Of a stretch of DNA of 64,000 nucleotides, positions 28,796 through 53,507 are shown piece after piece. Each line of letters opens with the position of its first letter. The stretch's first letter is position 1. The stretch covers positions 406,914 through 470,913 of the forward strand of contig DHZH01000002.1 of the NCBI GenBank assembly GCA_002414385.1, read 5' to 3'. Source of the stretch: Gammaproteobacteria bacterium UBA5109. Its GTDB lineage: Bacteria; Pseudomonadota; Gammaproteobacteria; Pseudomonadales; Pseudohongiellaceae. The notes under the pieces were generated by a model. It had not been told where the DNA came from and did not search any database. It saw nothing but the letters and a program-made list of their open reading frames with translations. A program made the position numbers and the translations under genes.

Positions 28796-30682
28796 ATGTT
28801 TGAAGAAATTCCACAGGAGCGGCCGCAAACACCGCTGCTGGATAGCATTAATGCCCCCGCCGATCTGCGTGAACTTGAAGCAGAACAACTGGAGCAACTG
28901 GCAACAGAGTTGCGGGCCTTTCTGTTGTATTCAGTTGGTAAATCCGGCGGCCATTTTGGAGCCGGCCTTGGCGTGGTGGAACTGACCATCGCCCTGCATT
29001 ATGTTCTGAATACTCCTGATGACAGACTGGTCTGGGATGTCGGACACCAGTCCTACCCGCACAAAATCCTCACAGGTCGCCGTGACCGCATGCATACCAT
29101 CCGGCAAAAAGACGGGCTGGCAGCTTTCAACAACCGTGAAGAAAGTGAATACGATACCTTCGGTGTTGGTCATTCAAGCACATCCATTTCTGCCGCGCTG
29201 GGAATGATGGTAGCCAAACGTAAAAGTGGCAGTGAGCATAAAATTGTTGCTGTCATTGGTGACGGCGCCATGACTGCCGGAATGGCATTTGAGGCCCTGA
29301 ATCATGCCTGTGAACTGGATGACGATATTCTGGTCATTCTTAATGACAACAACATGTCGATATCCAAAAATGTCGGCGGGCTGTCAAGCTACTTTGCCCG
29401 GATGTGGGCCAGCAAACCGTACAATTTTCTGCGTTCCGGGAGCAAGAAAGTGTTATCGAAAGTGCCTCAGGCCTGGAAAGCAGCACATCGTGCCGAGGAA
29501 TACATGAAAGGCATGGTGTCGCCAGCGACAATTTTTGAAGAACTGGGCTTTAATTATTTTGGCCTGATAGACGGACATGACATTGATGGCCTGGTCGATA
29601 TTCTTGAAAATATCAGGAATCTCAAAGGGCCGTTGTTATTGCATGTGGTAACCCAGAAAGGCAAAGGGTATCTGCCCGCTGAGGAAGATCCTTATGGTAT
29701 GCATGCGCTCAACAAGCTGGTGCCTGAGGAAGAAAAGCAGCAGCCGGCAAGTAACATTCCGACCTACTCAAAAATATTTGGTCAGTGGCTTTGTGAGACG
29801 GCTGAACAGGATGCCAGGCTTATGGCGATCACACCGGCAATGGGTGAGGGTTCAGGCATGCGTGAGTTTGAGGAAAAATTTCCAGAACGCTTCTTTGATG
29901 TTGCTATTGCCGAGCAGCATGCGCTGACCTTTGCAGCAGGTATGGCCTGTGACGGGCTCAAACCGGTTGTCGCCATTTATTCAACATTCCTGCAGCGGGC
30001 ATATGATCAGTTGATTCATGATATTGCCCTGCAGGATCTTGATGTGCTGTTTGCCATCGACCGTGCAGGTCTGGTTGGTGCAGACGGACCGACACATGCT
30101 GGCAGTTTTGATTTGAGTTATCTGCGCTGTATTCCCAATCTGGTAGTCATGGCGCCCAGTGATGAAAATGAAATGCGTCATATGCTTTATACCGGTTTTC
30201 AACTTCCCGGTCCTGTGGCTGTGCGTTATCCACGTGGCAGCGCAAGAGGGTTTGAGCTGGATGATGAGCTACACCAGCTGGAGCCAGGTAAAGCGATTAT
30301 TCGTCGGCACGGAAAACAGGTAGCGATTCTGGTTTTTGGTACTTTACTCAAGAATACGATCAAGTGTGCGGAAGAACTGAATGCAACCCTGGTCGATATG
30401 CGTTTTGTCAAGCCGCTGGACGAGGCGCTGATTGCCGAGCTGGCAGCGGAATATGATTTACTGGTAACGGTAGAAGAAAATGTGATCAAGGGCGGTGCAG
30501 GCTCTGCAGTCAATGAATTCCTTGAAGCAAGAGGCCTGAGTGTGCCAATACTGAACCTGGGCTTGCCCGACAAGTTTCTCGGACATGGAAAAGTTGCGGA
30601 GCTACTGGCAGATTGCGGCCTCGACGAAGCAGGAATCAGTCAGTCTGTAAGCAAAAGACTGCAACAGCTCAAGCAAGCCTAA
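28796..30682 (+). CDS. dxs: 1-deoxy-D-xylulose-5-phosphate synthase
   Basis: 628 aa. The TPP motif region [15 protein letters not shown] and DXS-like sequence throughout. Confidence 0.96.
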
Positions 30683-31680
30683 AGCAGTTTCGAGCCAAAC
30701 TGAATTTCACCATCCGGAATTTGCGGAACAGGTTCCTCGACAGGCGCTGATGTAGCAGCGCTGATATTGGTTTCCCAACTGTCTTCCGAGTATTCAGAAA
30801 TAGCCAGGAAAGCCAGCCGACCACTGTTATCTTCCGAGTAGGTGCCGACATAAATATCATACTCACCTGATTCGGGTGACGAGAAATAATATCCTCCGTT
30901 CAGGTTTTCCAGGCTGGAATTGTCATCATTGCAAAACCAGGAACCGCCGGGAGACTGAATGGAAATCGTCGTATCGTAGTCTGCACTGGTATAGATTCCC
31001 AACCCCAGACTACTGGTAGTACTGGGAGAATAATTAAGGCGATAAGTCGGTCCGTCACTAACATAACCGGCACAACCGTTACTTAAGTTATCTGCATCGT
31101 TGGGTCCACCAGCTACCACTTCAAAAACATAAGGATCAGGAAGGAACCCCCCGGACAGGCTGATTTCCGGGGAAGCTGCCTGTAAATCTGTTTCCCAGCT
31201 GCTTTCAGAAAACTCAGTGATTGCCAGAATCGCATTTCTGTTGGTATTGCTTTCTGAATAGGTTCCCACCCAGATGTCATACTGCCCGGATGCCGGGTCA
31301 CTGAAGTAATAGCCTGAATTCAGGTTATTCAGATCGCTGTGGTCATCATTACAATACCAGTCACCGTTAGGGTTATTGATCAGCAGGGTAGTATCGTATT
31401 CGGCATTGACATAAATACCCAGGCCGAGGCTGCCAGGGCTGAAATTCAAACGGTAAGTAGGTTCGTCAGTGATATAGCCATTACAGGAAGAATCAGCATC
31501 ATCGGCATCAAAGCTGCCCCCGGCCAGTACAGAAATGACGTTCGGGTCTGGAGTAAATCCGCCACTAAGTGATCCCGTTCCAAAACGCGGAGTGAGAGAA
31601 AAATCCTGGGCCATTGCCATAGAGCAAACAAAGGTACCAGTTGTAATAAGTAATAATCTGCTTTTATGAAAAGTCATCAC
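30679..31680 (-). CDS. Secreted protein made of two tandem ~140-aa PPC-like modules (island gene 8 of the minus operon)
   Basis: 333 aa with signal peptide [26 protein letters not shown]. Two internal repeats lie at roughly 31186..31608 and 30750..31185. Both share GGF.PDP....V.AGG..DA......C.GY..D.PTYRLN(F/Y)SP...LGLGIY...DYDTT..I..P.G.W.CNDD...L.NLN.GYYF..P.SG.YDI.VGTYSE. The start is 15 nt after the kinase stop. Confidence 0.75.
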
Positions 31681-31695
31681 TGAACCTCTATGGTC

Positions 31696-33702
31696 TTAAC
31701 GGGCAAGTCGAAAACCGGAGCTGGAACTGGCCTGAGTGGCCGGCATCCAGTTGCGGAAAGAAATTCGGCCCTGATGTTCACTGCTGTTCCAGCCACCACC
31801 GCGCAGTATTCGGCTGCAGCCACTTTCTCCGGTCCAGGCAGAACCATCATCCGGGGCACCGTTATAATTGTTACGAGCACAATCCTGTACCCATTCCCAG
31901 GCATTCCCGTGCATGTCAAACAGACCCCAGTCATTGGCAGGATAATTCATGACTTCCGCAGTACCGGCTTCACCACAGTTATTCATTTTTGCCAGGGCAC
32001 ACTGATGGGTATTACCCCAGTGATACTGAGCGGTGCTGCCGGCACGAGCAGCATATTCCCATTCGGCTTCTGTAGGGAGTCGATACCCGGCTCCGGTTTG
32101 ACCGTTAAGCCAGTCAATATAGGTTTGTACCTGATTCCAGTTGGCGTTGGTTACCGGCCGCAATTCCCTGCGCCCTGTACCCTGGTCATTGAGTTGGGCA
32201 CAAATACCAGCCTGCACACAGGAATCCCATTGCGCAAAAGTGACCTCATGTTCCATCAATTCAAAGTTATCGATGAATACTGTATGTACCGGTAGTTCAT
32301 CGCTGTCCCCGGTACCGGAGAGATCGCCCATATCAAAAAAACCGGAGGGGATGGAAATCATCTGGCCAAGATCAGCAATTGCCTGACTCAGTTGTTCCTG
32401 TTGCTGTTGTTGGCGCTGCTGGTTTTGTTGTTGCTGTTCCAGCCGCTCCTGTTCCAGTCTTTCCTGCTCGGCCTGTTCCGCTTCAGCCTGGAGTCTTTCC
32501 TGTTCGAGGCGCTCGGCTTCAGCCTGTTCCGCAACTTCCAGGGCAGCAGCAGCTTCTGCTGCAGCTTCCGCTGCAAGCTCTTCGGCACGCTGGCGCTCAG
32601 CTTCCGCCTGTAAACGCAATTCTTCGTTTTGCTGGTAAACCGTGAATCCGTAATAGCCTCCACCGGCAAGTATTATCAGCAATACTGCGGCAATGGCGTA
32701 CTTCCCGGCAGAGGATTGCTGTCCGGCAGGCTTGCTTACGGTGCTGGCTGCTGCTTTTTCCGGCTTTGCCTGTGGCGGGGGAGCAGATGCAGCAGCCTGT
32801 TCATTACCGTCAAGAAAACCGAGGACATCTTCGACAGACTGGAAGCGGTCTTCCTCATTAAGGCAGAGACATTTATCAATTGCCTTGAGTAAATTTTCTG
32901 AATATTTACCTTTGCCCAGTTCGAGCGCGGAAGTCATCGGGTCCGGCCGGTTACGGGTTACTGCACTCATGCGATTTTCTACCTGGGGCGGGTTCTGACT
33001 GGCGATAATGCGCCACATGACACCGCCAATGGCATAAATGTCAGTCCAGGGGCCGAGATTGCCGTCACTCTCTACCTGCTCAATAGCAGCATAGCCCGGA
33101 CTGTATGGCGCCATGGATTTACTGTGTTCGGTAAAATTCTGCTTGGCTGCACCGAAGTCGATTAATACCGGCTGTTCGTCGCTGCGGCGAATAAAAATAT
33201 TGCCCGGCTTGATATCGCGGTGCAGGACGTGCTGTTTATGTACAACACCGAGGCCTTTAAGCAAGGGAGTAATGATGCGACGCAGTTCATCTTCGGAAAA
33301 GCTCTGCTGGTTCTTTTCCCGGCCGCGAATCAGGTCCGATAGGGGCAGGCCATCTTCAAAGCTCATGACCAGGTAGGCTGTGCCGTTTTCTTCGATAAAG
33401 TCCTGGCAGTTAACAATGTTTGGATGATTTTCAAACTGTACCAGTTGCTTTGCTTCCGCCAGGAAGCGGTCAAGACCAGTCTGAAAATCGACCTGTTCAC
33501 GGGTACCAAGGGGGTGCACGGTACCGGATTCGCGTGTCGCCAGTTCCTGAGGCAGATATTCCTTGATTGCCAGCCAGTTTCCGAGGCGCATATGCTGGGC
33601 TTTATAGACAATGCCGAATCCGCCATAACCGAGCACGCTTTCGATACGGTATTGATTGATAACTGTGCCTTTCGGCAAGGCTAATCGATGTTCGGTATCC
33701 AT
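31696..33702 (-). CDS. Hanks-type Ser/Thr protein kinase, then TM, periplasmic coiled coil and FGE-sulfatase (SUMF1-type) domain
   Basis: 668 aa. Kinase motifs are GYGGFGIVY (aa 25-33), AIKE (K47), HRDIKPGN (aa 161-168), DFG (aa 182-184) and SPGYAAIEQ. The TM is YAIAAVLLIILAGGGYYGFTVY (aa 335-356). An E/Q/A/R-rich coil spans aa 357-445. The C-terminal domain (31699..32364) carries RLPTEAEWEYAARAG, GLFDMHGNAWEWVQD and RILRGGGW...SGFRLAR, typical of the FGE-sulfatase family. Confidence 0.9.
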   Translation of the reverse strand: MDTEHRLALPKGTVINQYRIESVLGYGGFGIVYKAQHMRLGNWLAIKEYLPQELATRESGTVHPLGTREQVDFQTGLDRFLAEAKQLVQFENHPNIVNCQDFIEENGTAYLVMSFEDGLPLSDLIRGREKNQQSFSEDELRRIITPLLKGLGVVHKQHVLHRDIKPGNIFIRRSDEQPVLIDFGAAKQNFTEHSKSMAPYSPGYAAIEQVESDGNLGPWTDIYAIGGVMWRIIASQNPPQVENRMSAVTRNRPDPMTSALELGKGKYSENLLKAIDKCLCLNEEDRFQSVEDVLGFLDGNEQAAASAPPPQAKPEKAAASTVSKPAGQQSSAGKYAIAAVLLIILAGGGYYGFTVYQQNEELRLQAEAERQRAEELAAEAAAEAAAALEVAEQAEAERLEQERLQAEAEQAEQERLEQERLEQQQQNQQRQQQQQEQLSQAIADLGQMISIPSGFFDMGDLSGTGDSDELPVHTVFIDNFELMEHEVTFAQWDSCVQAGICAQLNDQGTGRRELRPVTNANWNQVQTYIDWLNGQTGAGYRLPTEAEWEYAARAGSTAQYHWGNTHQCALAKMNNCGEAGTAEVMNYPANDWGLFDMHGNAWEWVQDCARNNYNGAPDDGSAWTGESGCSRILRGGGWNSSEHQGRISFRNWMPATQASSSSGFRLAR

Positions 33703-33767
33703 GATGCTTTCTGCAACCTGCCTCTTGTTTAACTGATTATATTGTCACATTTTTTAATTGTTACTAT

Positions 33768-34634
33768 TTAGATAGTTACAATGGCCATGATAATGCTCGC
33801 CAGCATGGACTGCCCGCTGGTGCTGTCAATAAATTCACCCTGACCACTTTGTGCCAGACGTCGTAAATATTCCTCAGCCTGATCACTGCCAACCATTACG
33901 GTGGACAGGTAATGTTCCGGGCTTGTGGTGGCGCTGAAATTCTGTGCGGTAGCAAAGGTTGTGTTCAGCAATTCCGGGTAGGCCGGCGCATCTGTCACTA
34001 CAATTATGTAGCGTCGCTGACTTTGCGGCCGCCAGTTCATTACTACGGCCTGATTGAGAGCAGCCGACAGGGCCTCCGGGTTGTCATCATTTGAGCCGCC
34101 ACCGAGACCCATATTGGCTTCCAGCTGATTGATGAAACTTTCAATCTGGGCAAAGTTGGTGGTCGGATATATCTGCTGGAAATTAAGCGGTTGATCCCAG
34201 AGTCGGTCGCCATACCAGACGATACCAATCCCGACTGACGGTGATAGACGGTCCAGCACTGTGGCCAGGTCGGCAATCTGCTGTTTCATCTGATCAATGT
34301 ATTCACCCATGCTGCCGGAAACATCCAGACAGATGACAATGTCCAGTTCGGGAATCCTGATGCGAGCCAGTTCAGAAGAAAGTTCACCGGCTTCCTGCTG
34401 AGACTGGGACAAATCACTTTGTGTCTGGGACAGTTCTTCCTGGGTTTGTTCCAGTTCCTGCTGTGCCTGTTCCAGCGCTTCGGCTACTTCCGCAACCAGT
34501 TCCGGGGAATCACCAGTGTTGGGGAAAAAGGGCAGGGCGGCAATTGTCAGCAACATAAAAGCACCCAGTGCCGAGGCAAACAGATCAAGTGCCGACATGC
34601 TGAAAATATTTATTTCGCGAGAGCGAATTTTCAC
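33768..34634 (-). CDS. vWA-domain protein with an N-terminal MotB/TolR/ExbD-like TM helix and a juxtamembrane coiled coil
   Basis: 288 aa. The N-terminus reads MKIRSREINIFSMSALDLFASALGAFMLLTIAALP, with basic residues and then a TM carrying Asp17. A Q/E-rich coil spans aa 43-90. The vWA MIDAS is DVSGSM (D104-S106-S108; nt 34311..34325), with a later VVTDAP. It overlaps the upstream gene stop by 4 nt. Confidence 0.85.
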   Translation of the reverse strand: MKIRSREINIFSMSALDLFASALGAFMLLTIAALPFFPNTGDSPELVAEVAEALEQAQQELEQTQEELSQTQSDLSQSQQEAGELSSELARIRIPELDIVICLDVSGSMGEYIDQMKQQIADLATVLDRLSPSVGIGIVWYGDRLWDQPLNFQQIYPTTNFAQIESFINQLEANMGLGGGSNDDNPEALSAALNQAVVMNWRPQSQRRYIIVVTDAPAYPELLNTTFATAQNFSATTSPEHYLSTVMVGSDQAEEYLRRLAQSGQGEFIDSTSGQSMLASIIMAIVTI

Positions 34635-36565
34635 TCCTGTTTCTCCAGCAGATTGACCTGATAGGTCACCAGGCCGACTTTAAGTGAATCTCCGGCATTC
34701 AGTTCATACTGCTGGCCGGGACTTAATACTGAGCCATTGATGGCGGTACCGTTGGCACTTTGCAGATCTTCAACATAAATTTTGTGATCCCGAACCATGA
34801 CGCGCAAATGTTTACGCGATACGGTTTCGATATTGAGTACATAGTCAGCATGTTGTGCCGAGCGACCGATAAGCTGACCGTTTTCTGACCGGATCAGCGC
34901 ATTACCGTTAATTTTCAGGCGTGACTCGGCGCCCTGTTCATCTTTGCCGAGTAAGACAATGTCGGGAAATTCAGCGGATGCCTTCTGTAGTTGTTCTTCA
35001 ATTTCCTGGCTCTGCTGCTTCACTTGCTGAATATTTTTTTCTGCTTCGTCCTGGCTTCGGCGACGTTTGCGGACCTGCATGACGACAAAGCCAAACAGGG
35101 CAATAACAACTATGCCAAAACCGCTCCACTGATACATGCGATTGCGCGCATCGACTTCTTGCTGGCGTGCTGCCTCTGCAAGCGCTTCTTCTCGTTCTTG
35201 TGCTTCCTGCTCGAGCTGTTCCTGTCTTTCCTGCAATTCAAGTTGTTCGGCTTCAGCCTGGGCAATGGCTTCCTGGCTGGCTTCAAGCTCCGCTTCCCGG
35301 GCCTGTAGTTCTTCCAGTCTTGCCTGATTTTCTGCCGCCAGTGCTTCCTGTTCGGCCAGTAATTCTTCTGTTGCTTCCTGGAGTCGCAGTCTTTCCTCTT
35401 CGAGAATTTCCTGTTCTTCAAACAAATCAATCAGAATTGCTTCCTGTTCCCTGATCTTGTCTTCTGCCAGTGCCAGAAGCTCGGCTTCTGACAGACAAAC
35501 ATCAAAGGCTTCATAGTAATCAACATTATTACTGGTCAGGAAAGTCCTGATACTGTCCAGGTTGGCACTGAATGCAAAATCCTGGTCTGGTCGCAAACGG
35601 TTGGAGAGCACCGGACTGGAATGCTGGCTGATACCGATCATTTCACCGCAATTATTTAACAGGGCAGCACCGTATTCCCCATCATCAGCCAGCGCGGTAT
35701 GACGAATCTGGCTTATGCCCTGATCAGTTTCAACAATACTCTGCAGGACACCCTGACGGTTTTCCTGCGCCAGGCCCAGAGCAATATTTCTGCCGGTTTC
35801 GGGGAAATCGTAGGATAGATTTATCGGACTGCCTTCAATACCGTTAACGGTTAACAATGCCAGACCGGCAGTTTCATCAGTGGCAGTAATACTGGCAACC
35901 AGAGAGGCACCATTCTGCGGGTTTTCGATAATCCACTGGTCACCCTGGGCGACCAGTGCTTCATTGGTAATAACCATATTATCTGTGACCAGGGTAGCCA
36001 GTCCGGTCTGCACTTCATTACCATTATTCAACACTCTCAGGCTGAAGATGTTGCTGGAAAAATTTGGCGAAAGGTCTATTTGCCAGTTGTCTTCGGGAGA
36101 TTCGGTGATAGCCAGAACCGCATCACCAAAAACATCTTCTTCAAAATAGGCACCTACCCAGATGTTGTATTCGCCGCTTTGCGGGTCATCAAAATAATAA
36201 CCGGCATTGAGATTTGCCAGGTTGTAATTATCATCATTACAGACCCACTCCCCGTCAGGAGTATTGATTAAAATTGTGGTATCCAGTTCCGAGCTTGTAT
36301 AAATTCCCAGCCCCCAGCCCGCGGCCTGGTAATCAAGGCGGTAATCAGGAGCATCAGAGATATAACCGTAGCAACTCGAATCTGCGTTGCCGGCATCAAG
36401 CTCGCCCCCAATGGCGACTTCAACAAGCTGTGGATCAGGCAGAAAACCGGCACTTAAATCGGTGCTGCCATAGTTAGGATCCATCCTGACATCCTGTGCA
36501 ACAGCCAGGCTACTTAAAACAGTGCCGCTTATCACAGTTAACACTATCAGTGGTCTAGTTTTCAT
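34631..36565 (-). CDS. Membrane-anchored protein: signal peptide, PPC-like module, degenerate trypsin-like domain, coiled coil, TM, cytoplasmic FHA
   Basis: I prefer the start MKTRPLIVLTVISGTVLSSLAVA-QD at 36565, which overlaps PP2C by 11 nt; the ORF-track start at 36682 would overlap it by 128 nt. The PPC-like module is ~36071..36496. The trypsin-2-like region has VITNEALV, ETAGLALLTV and GEYGAALLN. The E/Q/A coil is ~35140..35485 and the TM is WSGFGIVVIALFGFVVMQV. The FHA reads LIGRSAQHADYVLNIETVSRKHLRVMVRDHKIYVEDLQSANGTAINGSVL. Confidence 0.8.
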   Translation of the reverse strand: MKTRPLIVLTVISGTVLSSLAVAQDVRMDPNYGSTDLSAGFLPDPQLVEVAIGGELDAGNADSSCYGYISDAPDYRLDYQAAGWGLGIYTSSELDTTILINTPDGEWVCNDDNYNLANLNAGYYFDDPQSGEYNIWVGAYFEEDVFGDAVLAITESPEDNWQIDLSPNFSSNIFSLRVLNNGNEVQTGLATLVTDNMVITNEALVAQGDQWIIENPQNGASLVASITATDETAGLALLTVNGIEGSPINLSYDFPETGRNIALGLAQENRQGVLQSIVETDQGISQIRHTALADDGEYGAALLNNCGEMIGISQHSSPVLSNRLRPDQDFAFSANLDSIRTFLTSNNVDYYEAFDVCLSEAELLALAEDKIREQEAILIDLFEEQEILEEERLRLQEATEELLAEQEALAAENQARLEELQAREAELEASQEAIAQAEAEQLELQERQEQLEQEAQEREEALAEAARQQEVDARNRMYQWSGFGIVVIALFGFVVMQVRKRRRSQDEAEKNIQQVKQQSQEIEEQLQKASAEFPDIVLLGKDEQGAESRLKINGNALIRSENGQLIGRSAQHADYVLNIETVSRKHLRVMVRDHKIYVEDLQSANGTAINGSVLSPGQQYELNAGDSLKVGLVTYQVNLLEKQE

Positions 36566-37469: not shown

Positions 37470-37477
37470 GCACCTGC

Positions 37478-38197: not shown

Positions 38198-38223
38198 AAT
38201 GATCCTCCGGGAAAAATTTCAGT

Positions 38224-39039
38224 TTATTTTTCTTCATAAAGTCGGTTGATTAAATTATCCATACAATACTGGCCGGTGTTGTTGAGTGCGGATTCTTCCC
38301 GTCCCTGCGCCAGGTGCATAAAAAACACCAGAATTGCAGACATAACCAGCGCCAGCAGGGTCGTATTGAACGCCACACCAAGTTTGGTGGTAAGCACGCC
38401 CATCCAGACGCGAATTGCATCACTTTGTCCCAGGTCTGGCATATCGGATGCTTCCGACAATGACAGGGCGATACCGATAACTGTTCCGATAAAGCCGATA
38501 GTCGGAATCAGCCAGACCAGGTAACGAACCATGTTGTATTTCAGGTCGATCTCATGCTGCATCAACTCCAGACTGGAATTCATCAGGTTGTTGGACTGGT
38601 CTATGGACTGGCTGTTCTGGAACTGCAGAATAATACGGTGAATCAGCCGTGGCAGGAAAAAATAACGGGTATGCTTGTTATCAACCACTGAGCTGAAAAT
38701 CGGAACCAGCTCTTTGGCACGCAGCATTGTCGTATCATCTTCCGGCAACAGGCCGCGTTTGAGCTGGGCAATTTCTTTCTTGCCGCGGTCAAAACGGACC
38801 CAGAGTTCACCAAAGCCGATCATGAACAGCAGCCACATGATATTCTGGATGGTCAAGGGATAGGGGAAGACGTCTGTGGAGCGGTCGAAAAGAATATCTG
38901 CGAGTACCAGCTCTCCGACAACATCTTCAGACGGTGAGCTTATCAGTGACATGATGGCAATGAAAACCGCACCGATCATGATAGCAACCAGGGCAACAAT
39001 TACACGGTAGGTTGTTTCCTGTTGTTCAAGATTATTCAT
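38224..39039 (-). CDS. MotA/TolQ/ExbB-family proton-channel protein with no cognate MotB/ExbD/TolR gene adjacent
   Basis: 271 aa. It has two N-terminal TMs, a ~90-aa cytoplasmic loop, then the family signature LIPTIGFIGTVIGIALSL ... LGVAFNTTLLALVMSAILVFF. Confidence 0.85.
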   Translation of the reverse strand: MNNLEQQETTYRVIVALVAIMIGAVFIAIMSLISSPSEDVVGELVLADILFDRSTDVFPYPLTIQNIMWLLFMIGFGELWVRFDRGKKEIAQLKRGLLPEDDTTMLRAKELVPIFSSVVDNKHTRYFFLPRLIHRIILQFQNSQSIDQSNNLMNSSLELMQHEIDLKYNMVRYLVWLIPTIGFIGTVIGIALSLSEASDMPDLGQSDAIRVWMGVLTTKLGVAFNTTLLALVMSAILVFFMHLAQGREESALNNTGQYCMDNLINRLYEEK

Positions 39040-39100
39040 AGCTTAATTCCGCTTTCTCAGGCAACGAAAGGCTTTCCCTGGCTGCCGGACAAGTTATGGA

Positions 39101-39379
39101 TCAGTGCTTAATCGAATGCACCAGCTGCCGGACCTGAACTTCTTCTTTGCCGAGCAGCAGGATGTCACTTTCATTAACAAAGCCCTGTTTCATTAATTCC
39201 CAGGATTCGCCTTTCCTTATGCGGGTACCAGCTGTGGAATTAGCATCTATCAGGTAGTATTTGCCATCATCAGTACGTGTCAGCTCCAGATGTTTGCGGG
39301 AAACACTCTGGCCATTGATCTGGATATCAGCATCTGAAGCTCTACCGACTGAAAAAGTTCTGAATGACATGCATACCAC
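39101..39379 (-). CDS. Stand-alone FHA-domain protein, first gene of the minus operon
   Basis: 92 aa, with an alternative ATG at 39370 giving MSFRTF. The FHA motif reads FSVGRASDADIQINGQSVSRKHLELTRTDDGKYYLIDANSTAGTRI. Confidence 0.85.
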   Translation of the reverse strand: MVCMSFRTFSVGRASDADIQINGQSVSRKHLELTRTDDGKYYLIDANSTAGTRIRKGESWELMKQGFVNESDILLLGKEEVQVRQLVHSIKH

Positions 39380-39398
39380 CCTGAGTTTATGCAGACGC

Positions 39399-39414
39399 TT
39401 ATTCTATAGAATAA
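39399..39414. promoter_or_regulatory. Perfect 16-bp palindrome in the divergent promoter region of the island
   Basis: TTATTCTATAGAATAA is its own reverse complement. It lies 20-30 nt upstream of the FHA gene start and ~90 nt upstream of the PP2C-PepSY gene. Confidence 0.4.
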
Positions 39415-39505
39415 TTCGGGATTGCGCCAAATCTGCGACAGTTATATTTTCTGATAAAAAACTGGTGTTGAGGAAAGCCTGTAAAAGGGCTATCGTTAAC
39501 TTCCT

Positions 39506-41242
39506 TTGATTGGCCAGAAGAAGCAGCTAATGGCAGTTCTTGATAAGTGTTCTATCACTTGTTTTAGCCATATTGGGAACCGCGAAGAAAATCAGGATCG
39601 ATTTTGCGTTTTGCAGCATCCGCAAGGTAAGGCCATATTGTGCCTGGTTGCCGATGGTATGGGTGGTCACCGTGGCGGCGCACTGGCAGCACAGACTATT
39701 GTCGAGACCGCTGAAGCCCAGTGGCAGGAACACATTTCAGCAGACAGCCTTGATAATGATGCAGTCGAAGCATTCCTCAATCAGCTGATTACTGAAAGCC
39801 ACCAGGCAGTAAAAATGGCTGGTTTGGCTGAGGAAATTGAGCCCCGTTCCACAGTCGTTGCCCTTTACCTCTTTCATGACAAAGGCAGCATGCATGCCAT
39901 CTCCATTCATGCCGGAGACAGCCGTGCCGTGCAGTATTCTTCTTCTGGAAAAATAACCAGAACCATTGATCACTCCATGGCGCAGCTGAAAGTACTGCAA
40001 GGCAAAATAAGTGAAGAAGAAATGGCAACTGACCCTGATCAGGGCACTGTAATTTCAAATATTGGTGGTGAAGACGAGCCTGAGTCGGAAATTACTCACT
40101 GGAACCTGCAGCAGGGCAATTGTTTTACCATCTGCAGTGATGGCTTCTGGGAAATCTTTACTGATGAAGAAGTACTGGAATTATTTTCTCAGTTGCCGGA
40201 AGACAGAGAGATACAGCTGGAAAAAATATTTATCGAAAAAATCAAACAACTTCCCAAGCATGACAACACAACGGTTATAATGCTTGAAATTCCCGATAGC
40301 AAACCCGATAACAAAAAGGGTCCTTCCATGAGTGATACTGATAAACCTGATTCATCCACGCCGGATGTAGAAGATCCGGTAACCAATCCCGGCAAGACGG
40401 CGCCTGCCCCTGAGTCAGCCCCGCTTGGACAGGATGATGTTGCTGTCGGTACGGGCAACAATAACAAGAAACTGATTATCGGTATTGGCGTGGTAATCAT
40501 AGTCATTGCCCTGTTATTTGTGACACGTGGCGGCCAGGAGTCGGACGGGGAAAATGCTGGAGAAAATAGCGATGCGGGACAGGTAGCACAGGAGCAGGTG
40601 CCGGCTCCTGCACAGGAAGGGACAGAAGGGGCTGGTGAAGGAGAAGCAAATACTGAAGGAGGGGATGCTCCTGCACAGCCGGATGAAGTTGTGGCTGGTA
40701 ACGATGAGGGTGCAGCCGGCCAGGACAGGGTGCTTGACTCCCTGGAACTGGATACCGACATTTCGGTCAGCAGTGATGAAGAATTGGTCGCAGAAGTAAC
40801 CGATTTACTGGTGCTTACCGGCAGCCTTGGTCCGGATGATGCGTTGACGATCAGCAGTGAAGCCGAAGCCGGAGGCAACCGGATAATCCGTATGCAGCAA
40901 AGACATCAGGGCATCCCGGTGTTCGGCGGTGAGGTAATCGCTGTGGAAAACAATGGCAATGTCTTTAATGTCAGCGGCTCTACAGGTGCTGATATTGAAA
41001 TAGATGTCGAACCGGCCCTTACTTACGAACAGGCTCTGGAGATAGCCGGGGCGGCGCTGAACCAGGCACTTGGTTCCAGAAATGAAGACGCAGCACAACT
41101 GCTGATACTTGAAGTTGAAGATAATTATCATTTGGCCTGGTATAGCGTTCTGCTGATTGATGGCAGGGAAGAAAGGGTGTTTCTGGATGCCAATGATGGA
41201 TCGGTACTGTTACGACTGCCTACAGTGATAGGAGAGGCCTGA
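39506..41242 (+). CDS. PP2C Ser/Thr phosphatase, then TM, acidic linker and extracytoplasmic FTP/PepSY (M4-propeptide-like) domain
   Basis: 578 aa with a TTG start at 39506 and an alternative ATG at 39530. PP2C motifs are GNREENQDRFCV, LVADGMGGHRGGALAA, ICSDGFWE and HDNTTVIML. The TM is LIIGIGVVIIVIALLFV (aa 323-339, nt 40472..40522), followed by a D/E/G/A-rich linker. The FTP-like region reads RIIRMQQRHQGIPVFGGEVIAV. The PepSY-like region reads LTYEQALEIAGAAL...YHLAWYSVLLIDGREERVFLDANDGSVL (about 40838..41215). Confidence 0.85.
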   Translation: MIGQKKQLMAVLDKCSITCFSHIGNREENQDRFCVLQHPQGKAILCLVADGMGGHRGGALAAQTIVETAEAQWQEHISADSLDNDAVEAFLNQLITESHQAVKMAGLAEEIEPRSTVVALYLFHDKGSMHAISIHAGDSRAVQYSSSGKITRTIDHSMAQLKVLQGKISEEEMATDPDQGTVISNIGGEDEPESEITHWNLQQGNCFTICSDGFWEIFTDEEVLELFSQLPEDREIQLEKIFIEKIKQLPKHDNTTVIMLEIPDSKPDNKKGPSMSDTDKPDSSTPDVEDPVTNPGKTAPAPESAPLGQDDVAVGTGNNNKKLIIGIGVVIIVIALLFVTRGGQESDGENAGENSDAGQVAQEQVPAPAQEGTEGAGEGEANTEGGDAPAQPDEVVAGNDEGAAGQDRVLDSLELDTDISVSSDEELVAEVTDLLVLTGSLGPDDALTISSEAEAGGNRIIRMQQRHQGIPVFGGEVIAVENNGNVFNVSGSTGADIEIDVEPALTYEQALEIAGAALNQALGSRNEDAAQLLILEVEDNYHLAWYSVLLIDGREERVFLDANDGSVLLRLPTVIGEA

Positions 41243-43503
41243 TGAAAAAAACTTTACTAAGCCTTCTGCTATTTGCCGGTACTTTCTCAATTGGCGGCAA
41301 TGTCTACCCACAGGATAGTGAAGTTTTTTTTGATGGATTTGGCGAGAATACCCGGACTTTTTCCAGTGATGAAGAAATTATTCAGTGGCTCAGCACTGAC
41401 CTGCATGCCGAGTTGAACCTTGGTCCCGCCGACGAGTTAATGCTCAGTGAACAGAGTGCGAGCATTAACAATTTCAGCATTCATACCGTCCAGCAAAACC
41501 ATCAGGGCTATCCTGTCGTAGGGTTTCAGTCGCGCCTGATTCTGGATGCCCAGGGGAATCAGCTTGCCTTGCTCGGCCAGCATCAGGCTTTTCCGGAAGA
41601 CACACCCAGTGAGGCCAGTGTAAGTATAGAAGATGCAATTACAGCATCAGGCTTGAGTGATACATCTTTCAGTTCTGATACACCGGTATATATGGTTGTT
41701 GATGATGAATTAAGACTGAGCTGGCAGCTGGAAGGTAATTCCGATGGTGCCTCTGGCGCCACACAGGAAAGAATTTTTGTTGATGCACTCAATGGTGAAG
41801 TGATCGCCAGCTATCCGATGGTTTATACCGCCTTGATTCGCGAAGTCGGTGATATGGAAGCTGCCTGCAGGGCAGCAGGTATCACATTTCCCCTGGATCC
41901 GCAGTCAGCATTTGAAATTGAGCTGATGGTTGAGGAAGAACAGTACCATCGAAGTGAAGGTGAAGCATCCAGCGGGGCGGGCCATGTAGATGAACTTTAC
42001 GATACTCTTGGGGATGCCTATGAGTTTATGAGCAGTGTGCTGGGCATGGACAGTCTTGATGACAATGGGCTGCGACTAAAAGCCATTGCCGGAGTTCATT
42101 ATTTTCAGGGTGACCCATGGAATCAGTGTGTCGGTGACTCATTTAATGCCATGTGGAGTTCGCAGTGGAACGAGCTGTACATTCCTGAAGTTGCCATTCC
42201 CTTTATTGAAGTCGTTGCACATGAACTGGCCCACGGCATTGTTTCCAATGGCAGTGACCTGGTTTATGAGTTTGAATCTGGAGCCATGGATGAAGCCATA
42301 TCTGATGCCATCGGTGTGTCCTTCAGGGCCTGGCGTGATGCCGGTGGCCGTATGGGGTCAAGTCCGACCAATATCCCGACCTATCCTGCACTCTGGGAGT
42401 TACGCTCTGATACCGGCCCGCTGCGCAGCATGAGCAACCCGAAAAGCGTCAACAGCGGCTTGCCTGGAGGTTACCCGGATCACTACAACCAGTTTTTTGA
42501 TTTATCCATTGAGGAAGATCAGGGTGGGGTGCATATCAATTCATCCATCATTAATCAGGCTTTTTATATTCTGGTTGAGGGTGGTCAGCACCCGCGCCTG
42601 GGTACTGGCCCGAACGTGCAGGGAATTGGGATCGCCAATGCCAGCCAGATTTTCGCACTGGCCGGATCCCAGTTGCTAACTCCTTTTGCTGATTTTCAGG
42701 CAGGCCGCAACGCCTTTGCCCTGGCTGCAGAAATTCTGCACGGTAAACATTCCGAGATCTGGATTGCAGTTCATGAAGCCATGGATGCAGTAGGAATTCC
42801 GGGAAGCTGGCAACGACAGCCCCCCACACCACCACCGGTAATTCTGCCGACTCCGGTTCCGCAACCTGATCCGGCACCACCGTCGGCCCCTGATCCGGCT
42901 CCTGCTCCTGATACTCAGGCTCCGGATCCCGGCCCGGTTTCAACACCGGCACCGGGAAACCCACCACTGCCCAGTGAACCGCTTGTGCTAGAGAATAACA
43001 ATGCCCTGTATATAGGCCTGGGTATCGGATTCCTGGTCATTGCTTTCTTTGTCCTGAGCCGTTTACGTCCCCAATACAGTGCAAACGCGCCGGAATACCG
43101 GCGGGCATCAGCAGAACCGGCGCGACCGACACCTGCAACAGCTCCTGAACCACGGCTCAATCAGCAACAGATTGCAGTCAGCAGGGGAGCCAGTCTTGGC
43201 AAACTGGTCGGTTCCGGCACCAGTGCATCCATAGCGCTTGATGACTCATTACTGGCTTCACGTGAAGGACTGGTGATTGGTCGTTCGGCAAAACTGAACC
43301 ATGTTATTCTGGATGATTCCAGGGTTTCCCGACGGCACGCCCGCTTGCGCAAGGAAGGCCACCTGATTGTGCTTGAAGATCTGAATTCGACTCATGGCAC
43401 TGCAGTTAATGGCAAGAAGCTGCAGCCGTTTTCACAGGAAGTCATCCGGCAGGGTGACAGTGTGGAAATAGCTGGCATTAGATTTACCTGTGATCTGAGC
43501 TAA
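41242..43503 (+). CDS. Membrane-anchored M4 (thermolysin-family) metalloprotease with its own FTP/PepSY propeptide, Pro-rich linker, TM and cytoplasmic FHA
   Basis: 753 aa. The ATG overlaps the upstream stop (TGATG), and a signal peptide is present. The propeptide shows FSIHTVQQNHQGYPVVGF and LRLSWQL...IFVDALNGEVI. The zinc site is VVAHELAHGIV (HELAH at nt 42220..42234) plus ESGAMDEAISDAIG. GGVHINSSIINQAFYIL is close to thermolysin as I recall it. Then come the PPTPPPVILPTPVPQPDPAPP linker and the TM ALYIGLGIGFLVIAFFVLS (~43003..43062). The FHA reads LVIGRSAKLNHVILDDSRVSRRHARLRKEGHLIVLEDLNSTHGTAVNGKKL (~43265..43490). Confidence 0.9.
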   Translation: MKKTLLSLLLFAGTFSIGGNVYPQDSEVFFDGFGENTRTFSSDEEIIQWLSTDLHAELNLGPADELMLSEQSASINNFSIHTVQQNHQGYPVVGFQSRLILDAQGNQLALLGQHQAFPEDTPSEASVSIEDAITASGLSDTSFSSDTPVYMVVDDELRLSWQLEGNSDGASGATQERIFVDALNGEVIASYPMVYTALIREVGDMEAACRAAGITFPLDPQSAFEIELMVEEEQYHRSEGEASSGAGHVDELYDTLGDAYEFMSSVLGMDSLDDNGLRLKAIAGVHYFQGDPWNQCVGDSFNAMWSSQWNELYIPEVAIPFIEVVAHELAHGIVSNGSDLVYEFESGAMDEAISDAIGVSFRAWRDAGGRMGSSPTNIPTYPALWELRSDTGPLRSMSNPKSVNSGLPGGYPDHYNQFFDLSIEEDQGGVHINSSIINQAFYILVEGGQHPRLGTGPNVQGIGIANASQIFALAGSQLLTPFADFQAGRNAFALAAEILHGKHSEIWIAVHEAMDAVGIPGSWQRQPPTPPPVILPTPVPQPDPAPPSAPDPAPAPDTQAPDPGPVSTPAPGNPPLPSEPLVLENNNALYIGLGIGFLVIAFFVLSRLRPQYSANAPEYRRASAEPARPTPATAPEPRLNQQQIAVSRGASLGKLVGSGTSASIALDDSLLASREGLVIGRSAKLNHVILDDSRVSRRHARLRKEGHLIVLEDLNSTHGTAVNGKKLQPFSQEVIRQGDSVEIAGIRFTCDLS

Positions 43504-43566
43504 ACCCAGGTTTAAAATCCGGTATCACTCAGGCGATGCCAACAAATATTAAAATAAGGAAAGTAT

Positions 43567-44739
43567 ATGAGTGATACAAAGACTGCACGTAAATATCAGC
43601 ATTTTTCAATTTTCCTGCTGCTGGCACTTGCTGTCCTGGTTTTTTATATTGCCTTCATGCAAAGCACCGGTTCCGGTCTGGACTTTGGTGATGATAGTGG
43701 GGCACTTGCCATAAACGGTTCCTGTGAAGATATCCGTTTCCGTGGTCCGGGAATGGGAGATATGTCAGATGAGACTGGCAGCCTGAATGACGCCACTGAC
43801 TGCAGTACTTTATTTACCGAAGGGTCCATTTTTCTGGGCAGTGATGCCGCAGCCCTGGCATTGACTGCCATTAATTTTGGTGATGATGCGGGAACCTGGC
43901 CGGTTGATGGTGAGTGTGATGATCCACGCTTTGAAGGGGCCGGTGTTTCATTCAGTGCCGATAGCGACGAGATCATGCATGATGCAACTGACTGTCGCAA
44001 TTTGATGTTTCAGGGGCAGATTGCCTTCACCGGTGAACCGGAAGAATATATTCGTGACGGTATCGACTTTGGTGATAATTTCGGTACCTACGCTAATGAC
44101 AATGAATGCGATGATACCCGCTTCACCGGACCGGGGATGGCCGATGAAAGCACCTTCGAAGTCAGCAATATTCGCCATGATGCTGCAGACTGTTTAGCGC
44201 TTTATGATGAAGGCATGGTGGTATTGCAGGAAATGCAGATTATTGACGGTATAAATTTCGGAGATGACCAGGGGTCCTGGGCTAATGATGCTGAATGTGA
44301 TGATCCACGTTTTACTGGTGGAGGCACAGCGGAAACCCTGCTACAAGAAGATGCGATGCATGATGCAAGTGATTGTCGCAGTCTTTATCTGGCAGGGGGG
44401 ATAAGCTATATCGGCAACCCGGAAAACAGAATAATCGAAACCGGGGCGCTGGAAGTTACAGATGATCAAATAGAATCTGACAAGTACGTGGACGCCTATT
44501 CGTTTACAGGCACCCAGAATCAGCGGGTGGCTTTTGATCTGGTGTCCGATGAGTTTGATACTTATCTGATTGTCACTTCTCCGTCCGGAGAAGTTTTCGA
44601 GAATGACGATTTCGAGAGTGATACATCGCGTTCACTGATTTCAATGAGCCTGCCGGAAAGCGGCACCTATGCAATTCAGGTGACCAGCTACTCAAGCGAG
44701 TCATTCGGCACCTATACCCTGGAGATTAATGCTGAATAG
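43567..44739 (+). CDS. N-terminally anchored protein with four Cys/Asp-rich ~55-aa repeats and a C-terminal PPC-like domain
   Basis: 390 aa with the TM FSIFLLLALAVLVFYIAFM. Four repeats fit (L/I)(D/N)FGDD.G.W..D.ECDD.RF.G.G...(H/N)DA.DC..L (about 43678..44427). The C-terminal module (44428..44736) reads DAYSFTGTQNQRVAFDL...DTYLIVTSPSGEVFENDD...GTYAIQVTSY...GTYTLEI. Confidence 0.75.
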   Translation: MSDTKTARKYQHFSIFLLLALAVLVFYIAFMQSTGSGLDFGDDSGALAINGSCEDIRFRGPGMGDMSDETGSLNDATDCSTLFTEGSIFLGSDAAALALTAINFGDDAGTWPVDGECDDPRFEGAGVSFSADSDEIMHDATDCRNLMFQGQIAFTGEPEEYIRDGIDFGDNFGTYANDNECDDTRFTGPGMADESTFEVSNIRHDAADCLALYDEGMVVLQEMQIIDGINFGDDQGSWANDAECDDPRFTGGGTAETLLQEDAMHDASDCRSLYLAGGISYIGNPENRIIETGALEVTDDQIESDKYVDAYSFTGTQNQRVAFDLVSDEFDTYLIVTSPSGEVFENDDFESDTSRSLISMSLPESGTYAIQVTSYSSESFGTYTLEINAE

Positions 44740-53239: not shown

Positions 53240-53507
53240 GAATTTTAACTATCCCGCTTTTCTAAGCCATAACTATACGCATGCCGGCAAAAATTCGGGC
53301 TCGCTTTTTATTATATATGCTTGAATTCCTTAATATTTGCACAATAATCCGGCATCCGGGTAAAAGCATCCAGCGCATCCTTGGAATAGTACCAATGCGG
53401 CACGCTATGCTAAGCTAGCTCCGACAGGGTAGCAGAGTACCATTATCCGGGTCTTTGACGGTATCGAATGTCTCTTGTAGGTCAGTATCAGTTGCAAGGA
53501 GCAATAG

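Follow-up and report, generated by a model that had tools for sequence, protein, structure and literature searches.

The DNA analysed here, referred to as the window, is a stretch of 64,000 nucleotides from Gammaproteobacteria bacterium UBA5109 (Pseudohongiellaceae; GenBank assembly GCA_002414385.1, contig DHZH01000002.1, positions 406,914 to 470,913 of the forward strand), and its subject is a divergent cluster of 11 genes, g1 to g11, encoding a receptor-type Ser/Thr kinase, PP2C phosphatases, FHA proteins of the phosphothreonine (pThr)-binding type, a MotA/TolQ/ExbB-like channel protein and a membrane-tethered vWA protein (Table 1). In a six-frame list of open reading frames (ORFs), eight genes formed a minus-strand operon running from 39379 to 30679, with gaps from g1 to g8 of 61, 26, 8, -11, -4, 65 and 15 nt in that order, and three genes formed a plus-strand operon (39506-44739) in which g9 and g10 share 1 nt, the A of TGATG. 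These 11 genes, with their coordinates and spacings, had been proposed in a first-pass annotation of the window, and all were reproduced by the ORF list; the domains and motifs named there were likewise present in Pfam and NCBIfam scans and in the translations. The start codons of g1, g5 and g9 are choices and not established. For g5, ATG 36565 was preferred to the upstream TTG 36682 because it gives a proper signal peptide and agrees with the N-termini of the orthologues; the longer form would overlap g4 by 128 nt.

Table 1. Genes and intergenic region of the cluster (positions in the window; TM, transmembrane)
Feature	Position	Strand	Properties
g1, stand-alone mini-FHA, cytoplasmic	39101-39379	-	92 aa; Pfam FHA 8.1e-14
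g2, MotA/TolQ/ExbB-like A subunit	38224-39039	-	271 aa; four predicted TM helices
g3, GarA/OdhI-like FHA protein	37478-38197	-	239 aa; Pfam FHA 7.4e-9
g4, cytoplasmic PP2C Ser/Thr phosphatase	36555-37469	-	304 aa; Pfam PP2C_2 8.6e-13, SpoIIE 2e-9
g5, pseudo-trypsin-TM-FHA	34631-36565	-	644 aa; Pfam FHA 7.2e-15, Trypsin_2 3.2e-6
g6, TM-vWA protein, probable B subunit (axle)	33768-34634	-	288 aa
g7, receptor Hanks-type Ser/Thr kinase	31696-33702	-	668 aa; Pfam Pkinase 1.2e-37, FGE-sulfatase 6.3e-48
g8, two PPC-like beta-sandwich modules, secreted/periplasmic	30679-31680	-	333 aa; no direct Pfam match
g9, PP2C-TM-FTP/PepSY	39506-41242	+	578 aa; Pfam PP2C_2 1.5e-15, FTP 8e-9, PepSY 8.8e-4 (weak)
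g10, M4 protease-TM-FHA	41242-43503	+	753 aa; Pfam Peptidase_M4_C 3.9e-32, Peptidase_M4 4e-4, FHA 9.1e-17
g11, N-terminally anchored periplasmic protein	43567-44739	+	390 aa; Pfam PPC 4.3e-6 at residues 308-374
Divergent intergenic region, 126 bp	39380-39505	both operons point away	presumed shared promoter region

By the positive-inside rule and hydropathy, the kinase, both PP2C domains and all FHA domains were placed on the cytoplasmic side of the inner membrane, and the FGE-sulfatase, vWA, pseudo-trypsin, M4, FTP/PepSY and PPC parts on the periplasmic side.

Conservation and origin of the gene cluster

Homologous loci were sought by BLASTP using domain-level queries from the window, in a survey that took in the best 80 hits; 85 loci were annotated, the Pfam-annotated neighbourhoods of five representative proteins were also examined, and counts out of 64 refer throughout to those non-redundant loci that extend about 10 kb to either side. 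The usual order of the core was mini-FHA, MotA-like, FHA, PP2C, (pseudo-trypsin)-TM-FHA, TM-vWA and kinase, and all six scored core families were found together in 52 of the 64 full loci. Carriers among the Gammaproteobacteria were Alteromonas, Pseudidiomarina/Idiomarina, Aliiglaciecola, Alishewanella, Microbulbifer, Ketobacter, Halioxenophilus, Marinobacter and a Pseudomonas sp., and the core was further carried by Bryobacterales and Terriglobia (Acidobacteriota), Rhodothermales, Latescibacterota and Gemmatimonadota. The genes g1 to g7 are a conserved core across at least five phyla and a real gene cluster. With the core co-conserved in dozens of species, the linked, envelope-spanning Ser/Thr-phosphosignalling system of the first-pass annotation is upheld, and its 11-gene unit is replaced by a core of seven genes, an accessory module of two (g9 and g10) and two lineage-specific genes (g8 and g11).

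A chance juxtaposition of unrelated signalling genes, to which the heterogeneous outer genes g8 to g11 might point by lying outside the conserved core, is refuted by the recurrence of one gene order in dozens of species of at least five phyla, by gene fusions and by the overlap of coding regions within the operon. The earlier expectation that the genes are kept together in other genomes and are not neighbours by chance therefore holds.

The cluster is native to its genome and evolves slowly like its housekeeping neighbours; it is not a recent acquisition, and the term island, under which it had first been described, does not suit it. GC content was level across the cluster and its flanks, and the relative synonymous codon usage of the cluster correlated with that of 22 housekeeping genes of the window (r = 0.968) as closely as one half of the housekeeping genes did with the other (r = 0.952). 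The flanking genes were identified by Pfam as dxs on one side and korB/korA on the other, and the same dxs/korAB slot held all 11 genes in three related contigs of metagenome-assembled genomes (MAGs). Across these contigs, identity was 89-91% for the MotA-like protein, 87-89% for the kinase domain and 83% for the vWA protein, as against 80% for dxs and 85-87% for korA; the faster-evolving parts were g11 (46-62%), g8 (61-63%) and the M4 propeptide region (49-56%). Horizontal acquisition of the cluster in this genome was ruled out by GC content, codon usage and the conserved position, which together argue for native origin. On a longer scale, past horizontal spread across phyla is suggested by the identity of the A subunits between phyla (53-62%) and by occasional transposases in or beside the loci.

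The same signs of horizontal transfer bear on the possibility that the cluster serves anti-phage or anti-competitor surveillance as an analogue of Zorya, in which an envelope-anchored motor would detect a perturbation and pThr signalling would relay it. PADLOC gave weak matches of g2 to ZorA2 (3.8e-6), of the PP2Cs to the candidate PDC-M21C and of the kinase to mad6/PD-T4-6, and FGE-sulfatase domains are ligand binders in conflict systems (PMC7159879), a paper in which this cluster is not described. The PADLOC matches were nevertheless rejected as evidence for a defence system, being matches of generic domains only, without a system-level signature or an effector (nuclease, toxin or NTPase). 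The match to ZorA2 was partial (24 bits, profile positions 38-126 of 505), ZorB, ZorC and ZorD gave no PADLOC matches, and g6 gave none to a defence-system vWA or TerY-type protein. The locus is moreover native by codon usage and position and as slow as dxs and korA, is mostly present in single copy, and showed neither association with mobile elements nor the behaviour of a defence island; plasmid homologues were found in 1 of 72,556 cases, the sole carrier being a 1.3-Mb Rhizobium replicon. The defence reading is weakened by these results and is distinctly unlikely, and roles in defence or in envelope stress are speculation.

In genomes of the Bryobacterales type, transposases were observed in or beside the cluster (L005, 7591-8946 and 17612-18610; L087, 7638-9158). 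In L005 the PP2C gene was seemingly truncated (158 aa) and an integrase lay between the cluster and the M4-FHA gene, a state which points to decay or mobility.

The candidate motor pair g2 and g6

The product of g2 matched Pfam MotA_ExbB (PF01618) with an E-value of 3e-11 and 43.6 bits against a curated cutoff of 22.9. Its AlphaFold2 model had a mean pLDDT of 82, and the top 50 fold matches of the model in the Protein Data Bank (PDB) were all ExbB, TolQ, MotA, PomA or ZorA; the matches had a probability of 1.00 but weak E-values (3e-3 at best), with TM-scores of up to 0.56/0.68 (to Acinetobacter baumannii TolQ, 8vlw_B). Residues P179, G182, G185, T186, V187, G189, T226 and T227 were invariant in 15 sequences, and the motifs P179-x2-G-x2-G-T186-V-x-G-I and N-T226-T227 aligned with the pore-lining Thr motifs of TM2 and TM3 in TolQ/ExbB, of which the counterparts are SPYIGLFGTVWGI/ATA in E. 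coli TolQ and SPFVGLFGTVWGI/ATA in ExbB. A profile of g2 run against all PDB sequences returned chance matches only (ATP synthase subunit c). Because the Pfam score exceeds the curated cutoff, the fold matches agree and the pore motifs are invariant, g2 was taken as an A subunit, and its membership in the 5:2-type A-subunit family is well supported. Homologues of g2 amounted to 1723 clusters at 90% identity and to 576 confirmed stretches among the genomes of 185,579 species (one genome per species).

The channel protein had first been annotated as lacking a B subunit next to it. That view is revised here, as g6, with a TolR/ExbD-like Asp helix, is probably the missing B subunit of the motor. 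The protein consists of a single N-in TM helix with Asp17, a periplasmic coiled-coil linker and a vWA domain (Pfam VWA_2 4.9e-12, VWA 4.7e-11) with a metal ion-dependent adhesion site (MIDAS) of the motif DVSGSM. The N-terminal helix, REINIFSMSALDLFASALGAF, is almost unvarying across phyla and bears the invariant Asp; the first 35 or so residues, MKIRSREINIFSMSALDLFASALGAFMLL, were near-identical in 75 proteins from several phyla, while the remainder of the protein diverges. The consensus of this N-terminal module was KxRxREINIFSMSALDLFASALGAF with invariant F11, D17, A20, S21, G24 and F26, and Asp17 was invariant in 18/18 and in 102/102 aligned sequences. When the N-terminal 60 residues were searched by phmmer against 1.84 billion representative proteins, 561 matches were obtained, and among the best 150 of these 561 the module stood at residues 1-60 in nearly all, in proteins mostly of about 250-380 aa. 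A vWA domain was detectable in 65 of the 102 Asp-helix proteins, the consensus retaining the MIDAS motif DxTGS.

In the other 37 of the 102 Asp-helix proteins (L040-L044, L049, L074, L079, L086 and others) the C-terminal domain had no Pfam vWA match, and such domains may be divergent vWA domains or another head domain.

The topology of g6 is N-in/C-out as in TolR, ExbD and MotB, with 3 K/R before the helix and 0 after it, and by eye the helix resembles those of E. coli TolR (SEINIVPLLDVLLVLLLIF) and ExbD (HDINVTPFIDVMLVLLIIF), REINI...D standing against SEINI...D in TolR. The ExbD-type or OmpA-type periplasmic domain of B subunits is not found in g6, where the vWA domain stands instead. The linker is a coiled coil here and Pro-rich in the Idiomarina-type and Gemmatimonadota proteins, and these linkers recall the helical or polyproline domain II of TolA and TonB. 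The Asp-helix gene lay in the same operon as the A gene in 60 of the 64 full loci, two g6-like copies were found in L016, L018 and L077 only, and no tolR, exbD or motB gene was seen in the loci, in which neighbour clustering gave no other conserved family. In three Gemmatimonadota loci (L082, L084 and L085) the only query families present were those of the A gene and of g6; the motor pair therefore appears to be a functional unit on its own. The invariant Asp in a TM helix, the topology of TolR/ExbD/MotB type and the co-location with the A gene are the reasons for which g6 is put forward as the B subunit, and this assignment draws on features and context, not on detected homology.

A closely similar pair has been predicted. 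In PMC12204202 (Mol Biol Evol 2025), a family of TM helix-tethered vWA proteins with a TolR/ExbD-like trans-pore helix and a proton-binding Asp is linked to a tolQ-like gene, the Asp of the vWA protein is placed by AlphaFold3 in the Thr ring of the TolQ-like pentamer, and the family was seeded from Idiomarina loihiensis. By its description this is probably the same family as g2/g6: in both, a TolQ-like gene without a tolR or exbD gene stands adjacent to a membrane-tethered vWA gene with a conserved Asp in the helix, and the seed genus is represented here by the Idiomarina/Pseudidiomarina loci L019 and L021. The vWA genes of that family are found mainly in Proteobacteria and Verrucomicrobia, whereas the phyla and orders met here were Gammaproteobacteria, Acidobacteriota, Rhodothermales, Latescibacterota and Gemmatimonadota. 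FHA, kinase and PP2C genes are not mentioned in PMC12204202, where 'FHA' occurs only as FhaC. The statement in the first-pass annotation that the cluster fits no nameable system is to be revised: one half of the cluster, the pairing of motor and vWA protein, is predicted in the 2025 literature.

In TolQRA and ExbBD-TonB the A subunit has the same fold and pore motifs, its partner likewise crosses the membrane once and bears an Asp there, and there too a helical or Pro-rich linker spans the periplasm and ends in a binding domain. The present pair differs in that g6 would merge the roles of TolR/ExbD and TolA/TonB and ends in a vWA domain, that g2 has four predicted TM helices, that partners of the TolB, Pal or TonB-dependent-transporter type are absent here, and that a layer of kinase, PP2C and FHA proteins is added.

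The phospho-signalling genes and the proposed switch

The catalytic motifs of the kinase, of the two PP2Cs and of the M4 protease are intact, and the translations of all four FHA domains (g1, g3, g5 and g10) retain GR and SR(x)H, the residues that bind pThr. The kinase g7 is built of a cytoplasmic kinase domain (GYGGFGIVY, AIKE, HRDIKPGN and DFG present), a TM helix, a periplasmic coiled coil and an FGE-sulfatase domain, which is C-type-lectin-like. A kinase was found within 10 kb in 61 of the 64 loci, and its ectodomain varied, being FGE-sulfatase in 20/64 and PEGA, TonB_C or none elsewhere. Next to the cluster, PEGA and TonB_C ectodomains were observed together on a Bryobacterales kinase (L087, 2542-4617), and a separate TonB_C protein in L086 (18718-19464), an unclassified metagenome contig whose nearest relatives are Pseudomonadales MAG loci; these parts hint at contact with the outer membrane or peptidoglycan. 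The phosphatase g4 matched the NCBIfam Stp1/IreP family (9e-41, under its cutoff) and has the conserved metal-binding motifs DGMGG, GDS, SDG and DN; a PP2C of any kind was present in 59 of the 64 loci.

Orthologues of g1, which retains GR and SRKH as pThr-binding residues, were located upstream of the MotA-like gene in 47 of the 64 full loci. An orthologue of g3 was present in 60/64, mostly directly after the motor gene. In g3 a disordered N-terminal half with two conserved Thr residues precedes the C-terminal FHA domain; Thr ~70 lies in '(D/E)xPT' ('EPPT') in 70 of 77 orthologues and Thr ~98 in 'ExxT-x-(I/L/V)-x-G-G' in 71 of 77. NCBIfam gave sub-threshold matches to FhaB/FipA and OdhI, and g3 is the probable kinase substrate and switch. 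A conserved motif M-x-x-K/Y-R-x-P-D-G was also observed at its N-terminus, and this motif and the two Thr residues are candidate docking and phospho-acceptor sites.

In g5 a signal peptide, a PPC-like module, a trypsin-like domain, a coiled coil, a TM helix (residues 480-498, followed by 6 K/R) and a cytoplasmic FHA domain follow one another. The trypsin-like domain lacks the catalytic Ser and His, in agreement with its earlier description as inactive; among the orthologues Ser was absent in 54/57 and His was kept in 19/57, and the Cys of 'NxCG' was invariant. A g5-like TM-FHA protein occurred in 53 of the 64 loci. In the Latescibacterota loci L056 (7441-8742), L070 (7203-8693) and L080 (7371-8768), a second trypsin-TM-FHA paralogue with an intact triad (TNxHV, D, GNSGGP) was observed beside the dead one.

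With modest confidence we favour the reading of the cluster as a native and widely conserved envelope machine, in which a 5:2 motor of g2 and g6, driven by the proton motive force (PMF), is gated by the kinase/PP2C/FHA switch. It is a more tentative proposal, which may well fail, that the machine represents an unrecognised class, namely an ion-driven 5:2 rotary motor with a vWA protein as its axle and force transducer, switched by eukaryote-like Ser/Thr phosphorylation that is read by FHA domains. Five copies of g2 would surround two copies of g6, of which the Asp17 helix would be the trans-pore helix of TolR/ExbD/MotB type, and the linker would carry the MIDAS-bearing vWA domain across the periplasm, so that the roles of TolR and TolA/TonB would be merged in one chain. 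A periplasmic ligand or cue would activate the receptor kinase g7 via its variable sensor ectodomain (here the lectin-like FGE-sulfatase), and the kinase would then phosphorylate the Thr sites of g3 and possibly juxtamembrane linkers of the kinase or g5. Contacts between FHA domains and pThr among g1, g3 and g5, the last of which would link a periplasmic peptide-binding domain to a membrane-near cytoplasmic FHA domain, would assemble on, or be released from, the cytoplasmic face of the g2 pentamer and thereby gate the motor. The motor would pull or turn the vWA domain against a periplasmic or outer-membrane partner, for which the g5 ectodomain and the PPC-module proteins are candidates, and the PP2C g4 would act as eraser and reset the system. 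The 5:2 complex, the kinase-substrate assignments, the direction of signalling and the physiological output are inferred, and candidate outputs are envelope tethering, adhesion, regulated proteolysis and surveillance.

Several results weigh against this model. No conserved Thr was present in the cytoplasmic loops of g2 in 15 sequences, so that direct phosphorylation of g2 is unlikely, and the contact between FHA proteins and the motor is purely conjectural. Three of the 64 full loci had no kinase within 10 kb, and four had no Asp-helix protein. The spacing from EINI to the Asp in g6 is two residues longer than in TolR/ExbD; g6 gave no Pfam, NCBIfam or PDB-sequence match to ExbD, TolR or MotB; and a profile of its helix gave only chance matches, to insect Orco, among PDB sequences. 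Finally, the vWA genes of PMC12204202 mostly occur as heterologous pairs, whereas a single gene was mostly found here.

The genes themselves could instead belong to a signalling-only hub, that is, a trans-envelope stress-sensing pathway in which the MotA-like and vWA proteins would form a gated ion channel or scaffold that depolarises the membrane or senses the PMF without doing mechanical work, the targets being encoded elsewhere. FHA, kinase and PP2C genes outnumber the motor genes, kinase ectodomains vary as they do in sensors, the core is without an obvious outer-membrane or peptidoglycan partner by neighbour clustering, and g3 resembles GarA/OdhI, regulators of cytoplasmic enzymes, at sub-threshold NCBIfam scores. 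This reading is set back by the conservation of the A subunit and of the Asp helix of g6, which exceeds that of all other parts of the cluster and includes the pore motifs of a working motor, by the similarity of the coiled-coil or Pro-rich g6 linkers to the periplasm-spanning domain II of TolA and TonB (PMC12204202), and by the existence of two-gene A and B loci without kinase or FHA, and it was considered unlikely.

The phospho-switched motor was further compared with known apparatus. When the neighbouring ORFs were clustered all against all, no additional conserved family emerged, the other clusters being antisense or alternative-frame shadows of core genes, and no secretion, pilus, gliding, Tol-Pal or ATPase genes were found to travel with the core; T6SS-type or other secretion or motility apparatus genes were likewise absent from the 64-kb window in the Pfam and NCBIfam annotation. 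T6SS-type neighbours (ImpA_N, DUF3540) occurred in 1 of 87 loci, L086, and in agreement with the first-pass annotation the cluster is not embedded in a known apparatus. In L086 (1367-2878) the cluster is a variant with a changed gene order, another PP2C and additional kinases, and the genes for ImpA_N (TssA-like) and DUF3540 stand immediately upstream of it. The ImpA_N and DUF3540 proteins of L086 had no homologue in the 85 other loci, and embedding in a T6SS was ruled out as a general feature on this ground.

These data also bear on whether the cluster regulates, as an orphan module, a secretion or motility apparatus whose genes lie elsewhere, in the manner of the T6SS threonine-phosphorylation pathway or of the Agl-Glt gliding or adhesion motor. 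The part list resembles PpkA/PppA/Fha, and PpkA of Pseudomonas aeruginosa carries a periplasmic vWA domain. As in that pathway, in which binding of Fha to PpkA-phosphorylated TssL switches on the T6SS of Agrobacterium (PMC3953482), a Hanks kinase, a PP2C and an FHA reader would control a membrane machine post-translationally; T6SS structural genes are however not near, the vWA domain is on a separate Asp-helix protein, three or four FHA proteins are present, and a MotA-like motor is included. With Myxococcus Agl-Glt are shared the TolQ-like motor (AglR), a TM-adjacent FHA domain at the inner membrane (GltG) and a vWA component (the adhesin CglB); docking of this GltG FHA domain on the pentamer of AglR has been predicted (PMC11761067). 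AglQ and AglS are conventional and TolR-like, CglB is an outer-membrane lipoprotein (PMC11761067), a dedicated kinase and PP2C are lacking there, and about 17 Glt proteins are without counterpart here. The L086 neighbours without homologues elsewhere, the absence of a further conserved neighbour family and of anything similar in the 64-kb window, and NCBIfam scores for TagH and GltG far under their cutoffs (24-26 bits against 120 for the TagH/Fha1-type FHA, TIGR03354) make such an orphan module very unlikely.

Three sets that had been named as similar but not matching were examined, and the mismatch was confirmed for the T6SS pathway, as above, and for the other two. For the actinobacterial FhaA/FhaB-PstP-RodA-PbpA-PknAB cluster, the PASTA kinase family NF033483 scored 122.7 against a cutoff of 450, and no RodA or PbpA neighbours were found at the locus or among conserved neighbours; for vWA-MoxR systems, no MoxR AAA+ ATPase was found in the cluster or among conserved neighbours. 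Likeness to GarA/OdhI was seen in the disordered N-terminal region with conserved Thr and the C-terminal FHA of g3, and to FhaB/FipA in the TM helix followed by FHA in g5 and g10 (sub-threshold NCBIfam matches), but scores were far under the family cutoffs and context and partners are unrelated. The TerY-P triad consists of a TerY-like vWA protein, a PP2C and a Ser/Thr kinase ending in a zinc ribbon/OB fold, according to PMC11090510 (summarising Anantharaman 2012). The same three activities are co-encoded here, but with a vWA domain that is periplasmic and membrane-anchored, TerY being a soluble cytoplasmic protein, with a kinase that bears an FGE-sulfatase ectodomain, and with FHA and MotA-like genes besides. 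Recurring vWA-kinase-FHA-PP2C operons, for example Deinococcus DRA0331-0334, are a related precedent, and the MotAB FIT/GIT classification (PMC12505986) mentions neither FHA nor vWA, nor kinases or PP2C. In a full-text literature search, no precedent was found for a dedicated Hanks-kinase/PP2C/FHA control layer on a 5:2 motor, and neither a paper on the combination of motor and phospho-switch nor an experiment on it.

The 5:2 motors (MotAB, ExbBD, TolQR, AglRQS, GldLM and ZorAB) carry inner-membrane energy into the envelope, and each new member so far has led to a new cell-biological function. If the model is correct, the present system would be the first phospho-regulated member of the MotAB/ExbBD/TolQR superfamily; the axle of the motor would itself span the periplasm as the effector, its vWA domain bearing a metal-dependent binding site like that of integrins, and the sensing of periplasmic ligands, with regulated proteolysis in some lineages, would be coupled to mechanical work on the envelope. 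The cluster is carried by culturable marine genera (Alteromonas, Pseudidiomarina, Aliiglaciecola, Alishewanella, Microbulbifer, Halioxenophilus and Ketobacter) and offers point-mutable handles in g6 Asp17, the MIDAS site, the two Thr of g3 and the Arg/Ser residues of the FHA domains. The gating of 5:2 motors could be addressed here because these handles are defined in a system in which the gate is probably phosphorylation.

Accessory genes and surroundings of the cluster

The pair of PP2C-TM-propeptide and M4-TM-FHA genes, g9 and g10, is an accessory module of about 30% of the loci (M4-FHA in 20/64, FTP/PepSY in 17/64). In g9 the TM helix comprises residues 322-340 and the M4-propeptide-like domain is periplasmic. 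In g10 a signal peptide, a propeptide-like region, an M4 (thermolysin-type) domain, a Pro-rich linker, a TM helix (residues 588-606, followed by 4 K/R) and a cytoplasmic FHA domain follow one another, and with HELAH, EAISD and GGVHINS present the metalloprotease is apparently active. The periplasmic domain of g9 (40748-41239) was paralogous to the propeptide-like region of g10 (41314-41961), with 29% identity over 162 aa and an E-value of 5e-12. In L022 and L063, PP2C, propeptide, M4 and FHA were fused in one polypeptide with two TM segments, and these single-chain fusions argue that g9 and g10 act together as a single unit under the pThr code of the switch. The propeptides (FTP, PepSY) of thermolysin-family precursors are intramolecular chaperones and inhibitors. 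The propeptide copy in g9 might thus act as chaperone or inhibitor of the g10 protease, and in this lineage the pair would probably couple regulated periplasmic proteolysis to the pThr switch.

The AlphaFold2 model of g8 (mean pLDDT 82.6) was a tandem beta-sandwich, with the best PDB matches including the tandem collagen-binding domain of ColG (5iku) and CUB tandems, and 19 of 38 g8 homologues matched Pfam PPC (PF04151; best 1.8e-10). The N-terminal module of g5 (35996-36508) was 54% identical to each module of g8 (E-values 1e-57 and 4e-46), which looks like a recent duplication within the locus. The four PPC-like modules counted in the first-pass annotation are thereby accounted for, one by the Pfam match of g11 and the three Pfam-silent ones by the g8 homologues, the modelled fold and the identity of g5 and g8. 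The tip of g5 and g8 have this module in common, and g8 might act as a soluble partner of g5 or compete with it. The module was absent from most g5 orthologues, its insertion in g5 being found in 2/64 loci, both relatives of the window. In g11, residues ~37-290 (43675-44437), ahead of the PPC domain, consist of four tandem Cys-pair repeats of about 60 aa (FGDDxGxWxxDxECDDxRFxGxG...DAxDC) without a Pfam match, which may be an undescribed periplasmic repeat domain. Three of the 64 full loci carried g8 and three carried g11; in each case the close relatives L006 and L007 were two of the three, and g11 was also present on the short contig L009. Outside close relatives of the window, g8, g11 and the PPC insertion in g5 are essentially absent. 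Identical copies of g8 were present on Tara Oceans and other marine metagenome contigs, and the host is an uncultured marine gammaproteobacterium.

An FHA-FHA-ABC transporter gene (ABC_tran and ABC2_membrane) was observed after the M4-FHA gene in Alteromonas (L001, L002 and L016) and Ketobacter (L003 and L004), and in 10 of the 64 loci in all. This layout is the architecture of mycobacterial Rv1747. The earlier statement that the cluster has no ATPase is accordingly valid for the window and not for these relatives.

One sigma-70-like match (39430-39401) faces the minus-strand operon. A promoter and terminator scan of the cluster did not differ from shuffled sequences, promoter-like sites in 39380-39505 being no commoner than in shuffles, and the match is not evidence of function because shuffles yield such sites equally often. 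Before the cluster the window contains gltBD, hemE, bioA, dcp, rsgA, ccoNOP, bioBFC, trhO, ispA and dxs, and after it korBA, a DsbA-like gene, mltB, genes for a BaeS-like kinase and a GGDEF protein, ettA, glyA and ribD. Among the housekeeping genes, two ORFs of 386 and 286 aa (18311-19471, minus strand, and 25844-26704, plus strand, respectively) had no NCBIfam match at E <= 1e-5. The BaeS-like kinase, a histidine kinase of the envelope-stress type, and the GGDEF protein, a diguanylate cyclase, are encoded at 51713-54635, about 7 kb downstream of the cluster.

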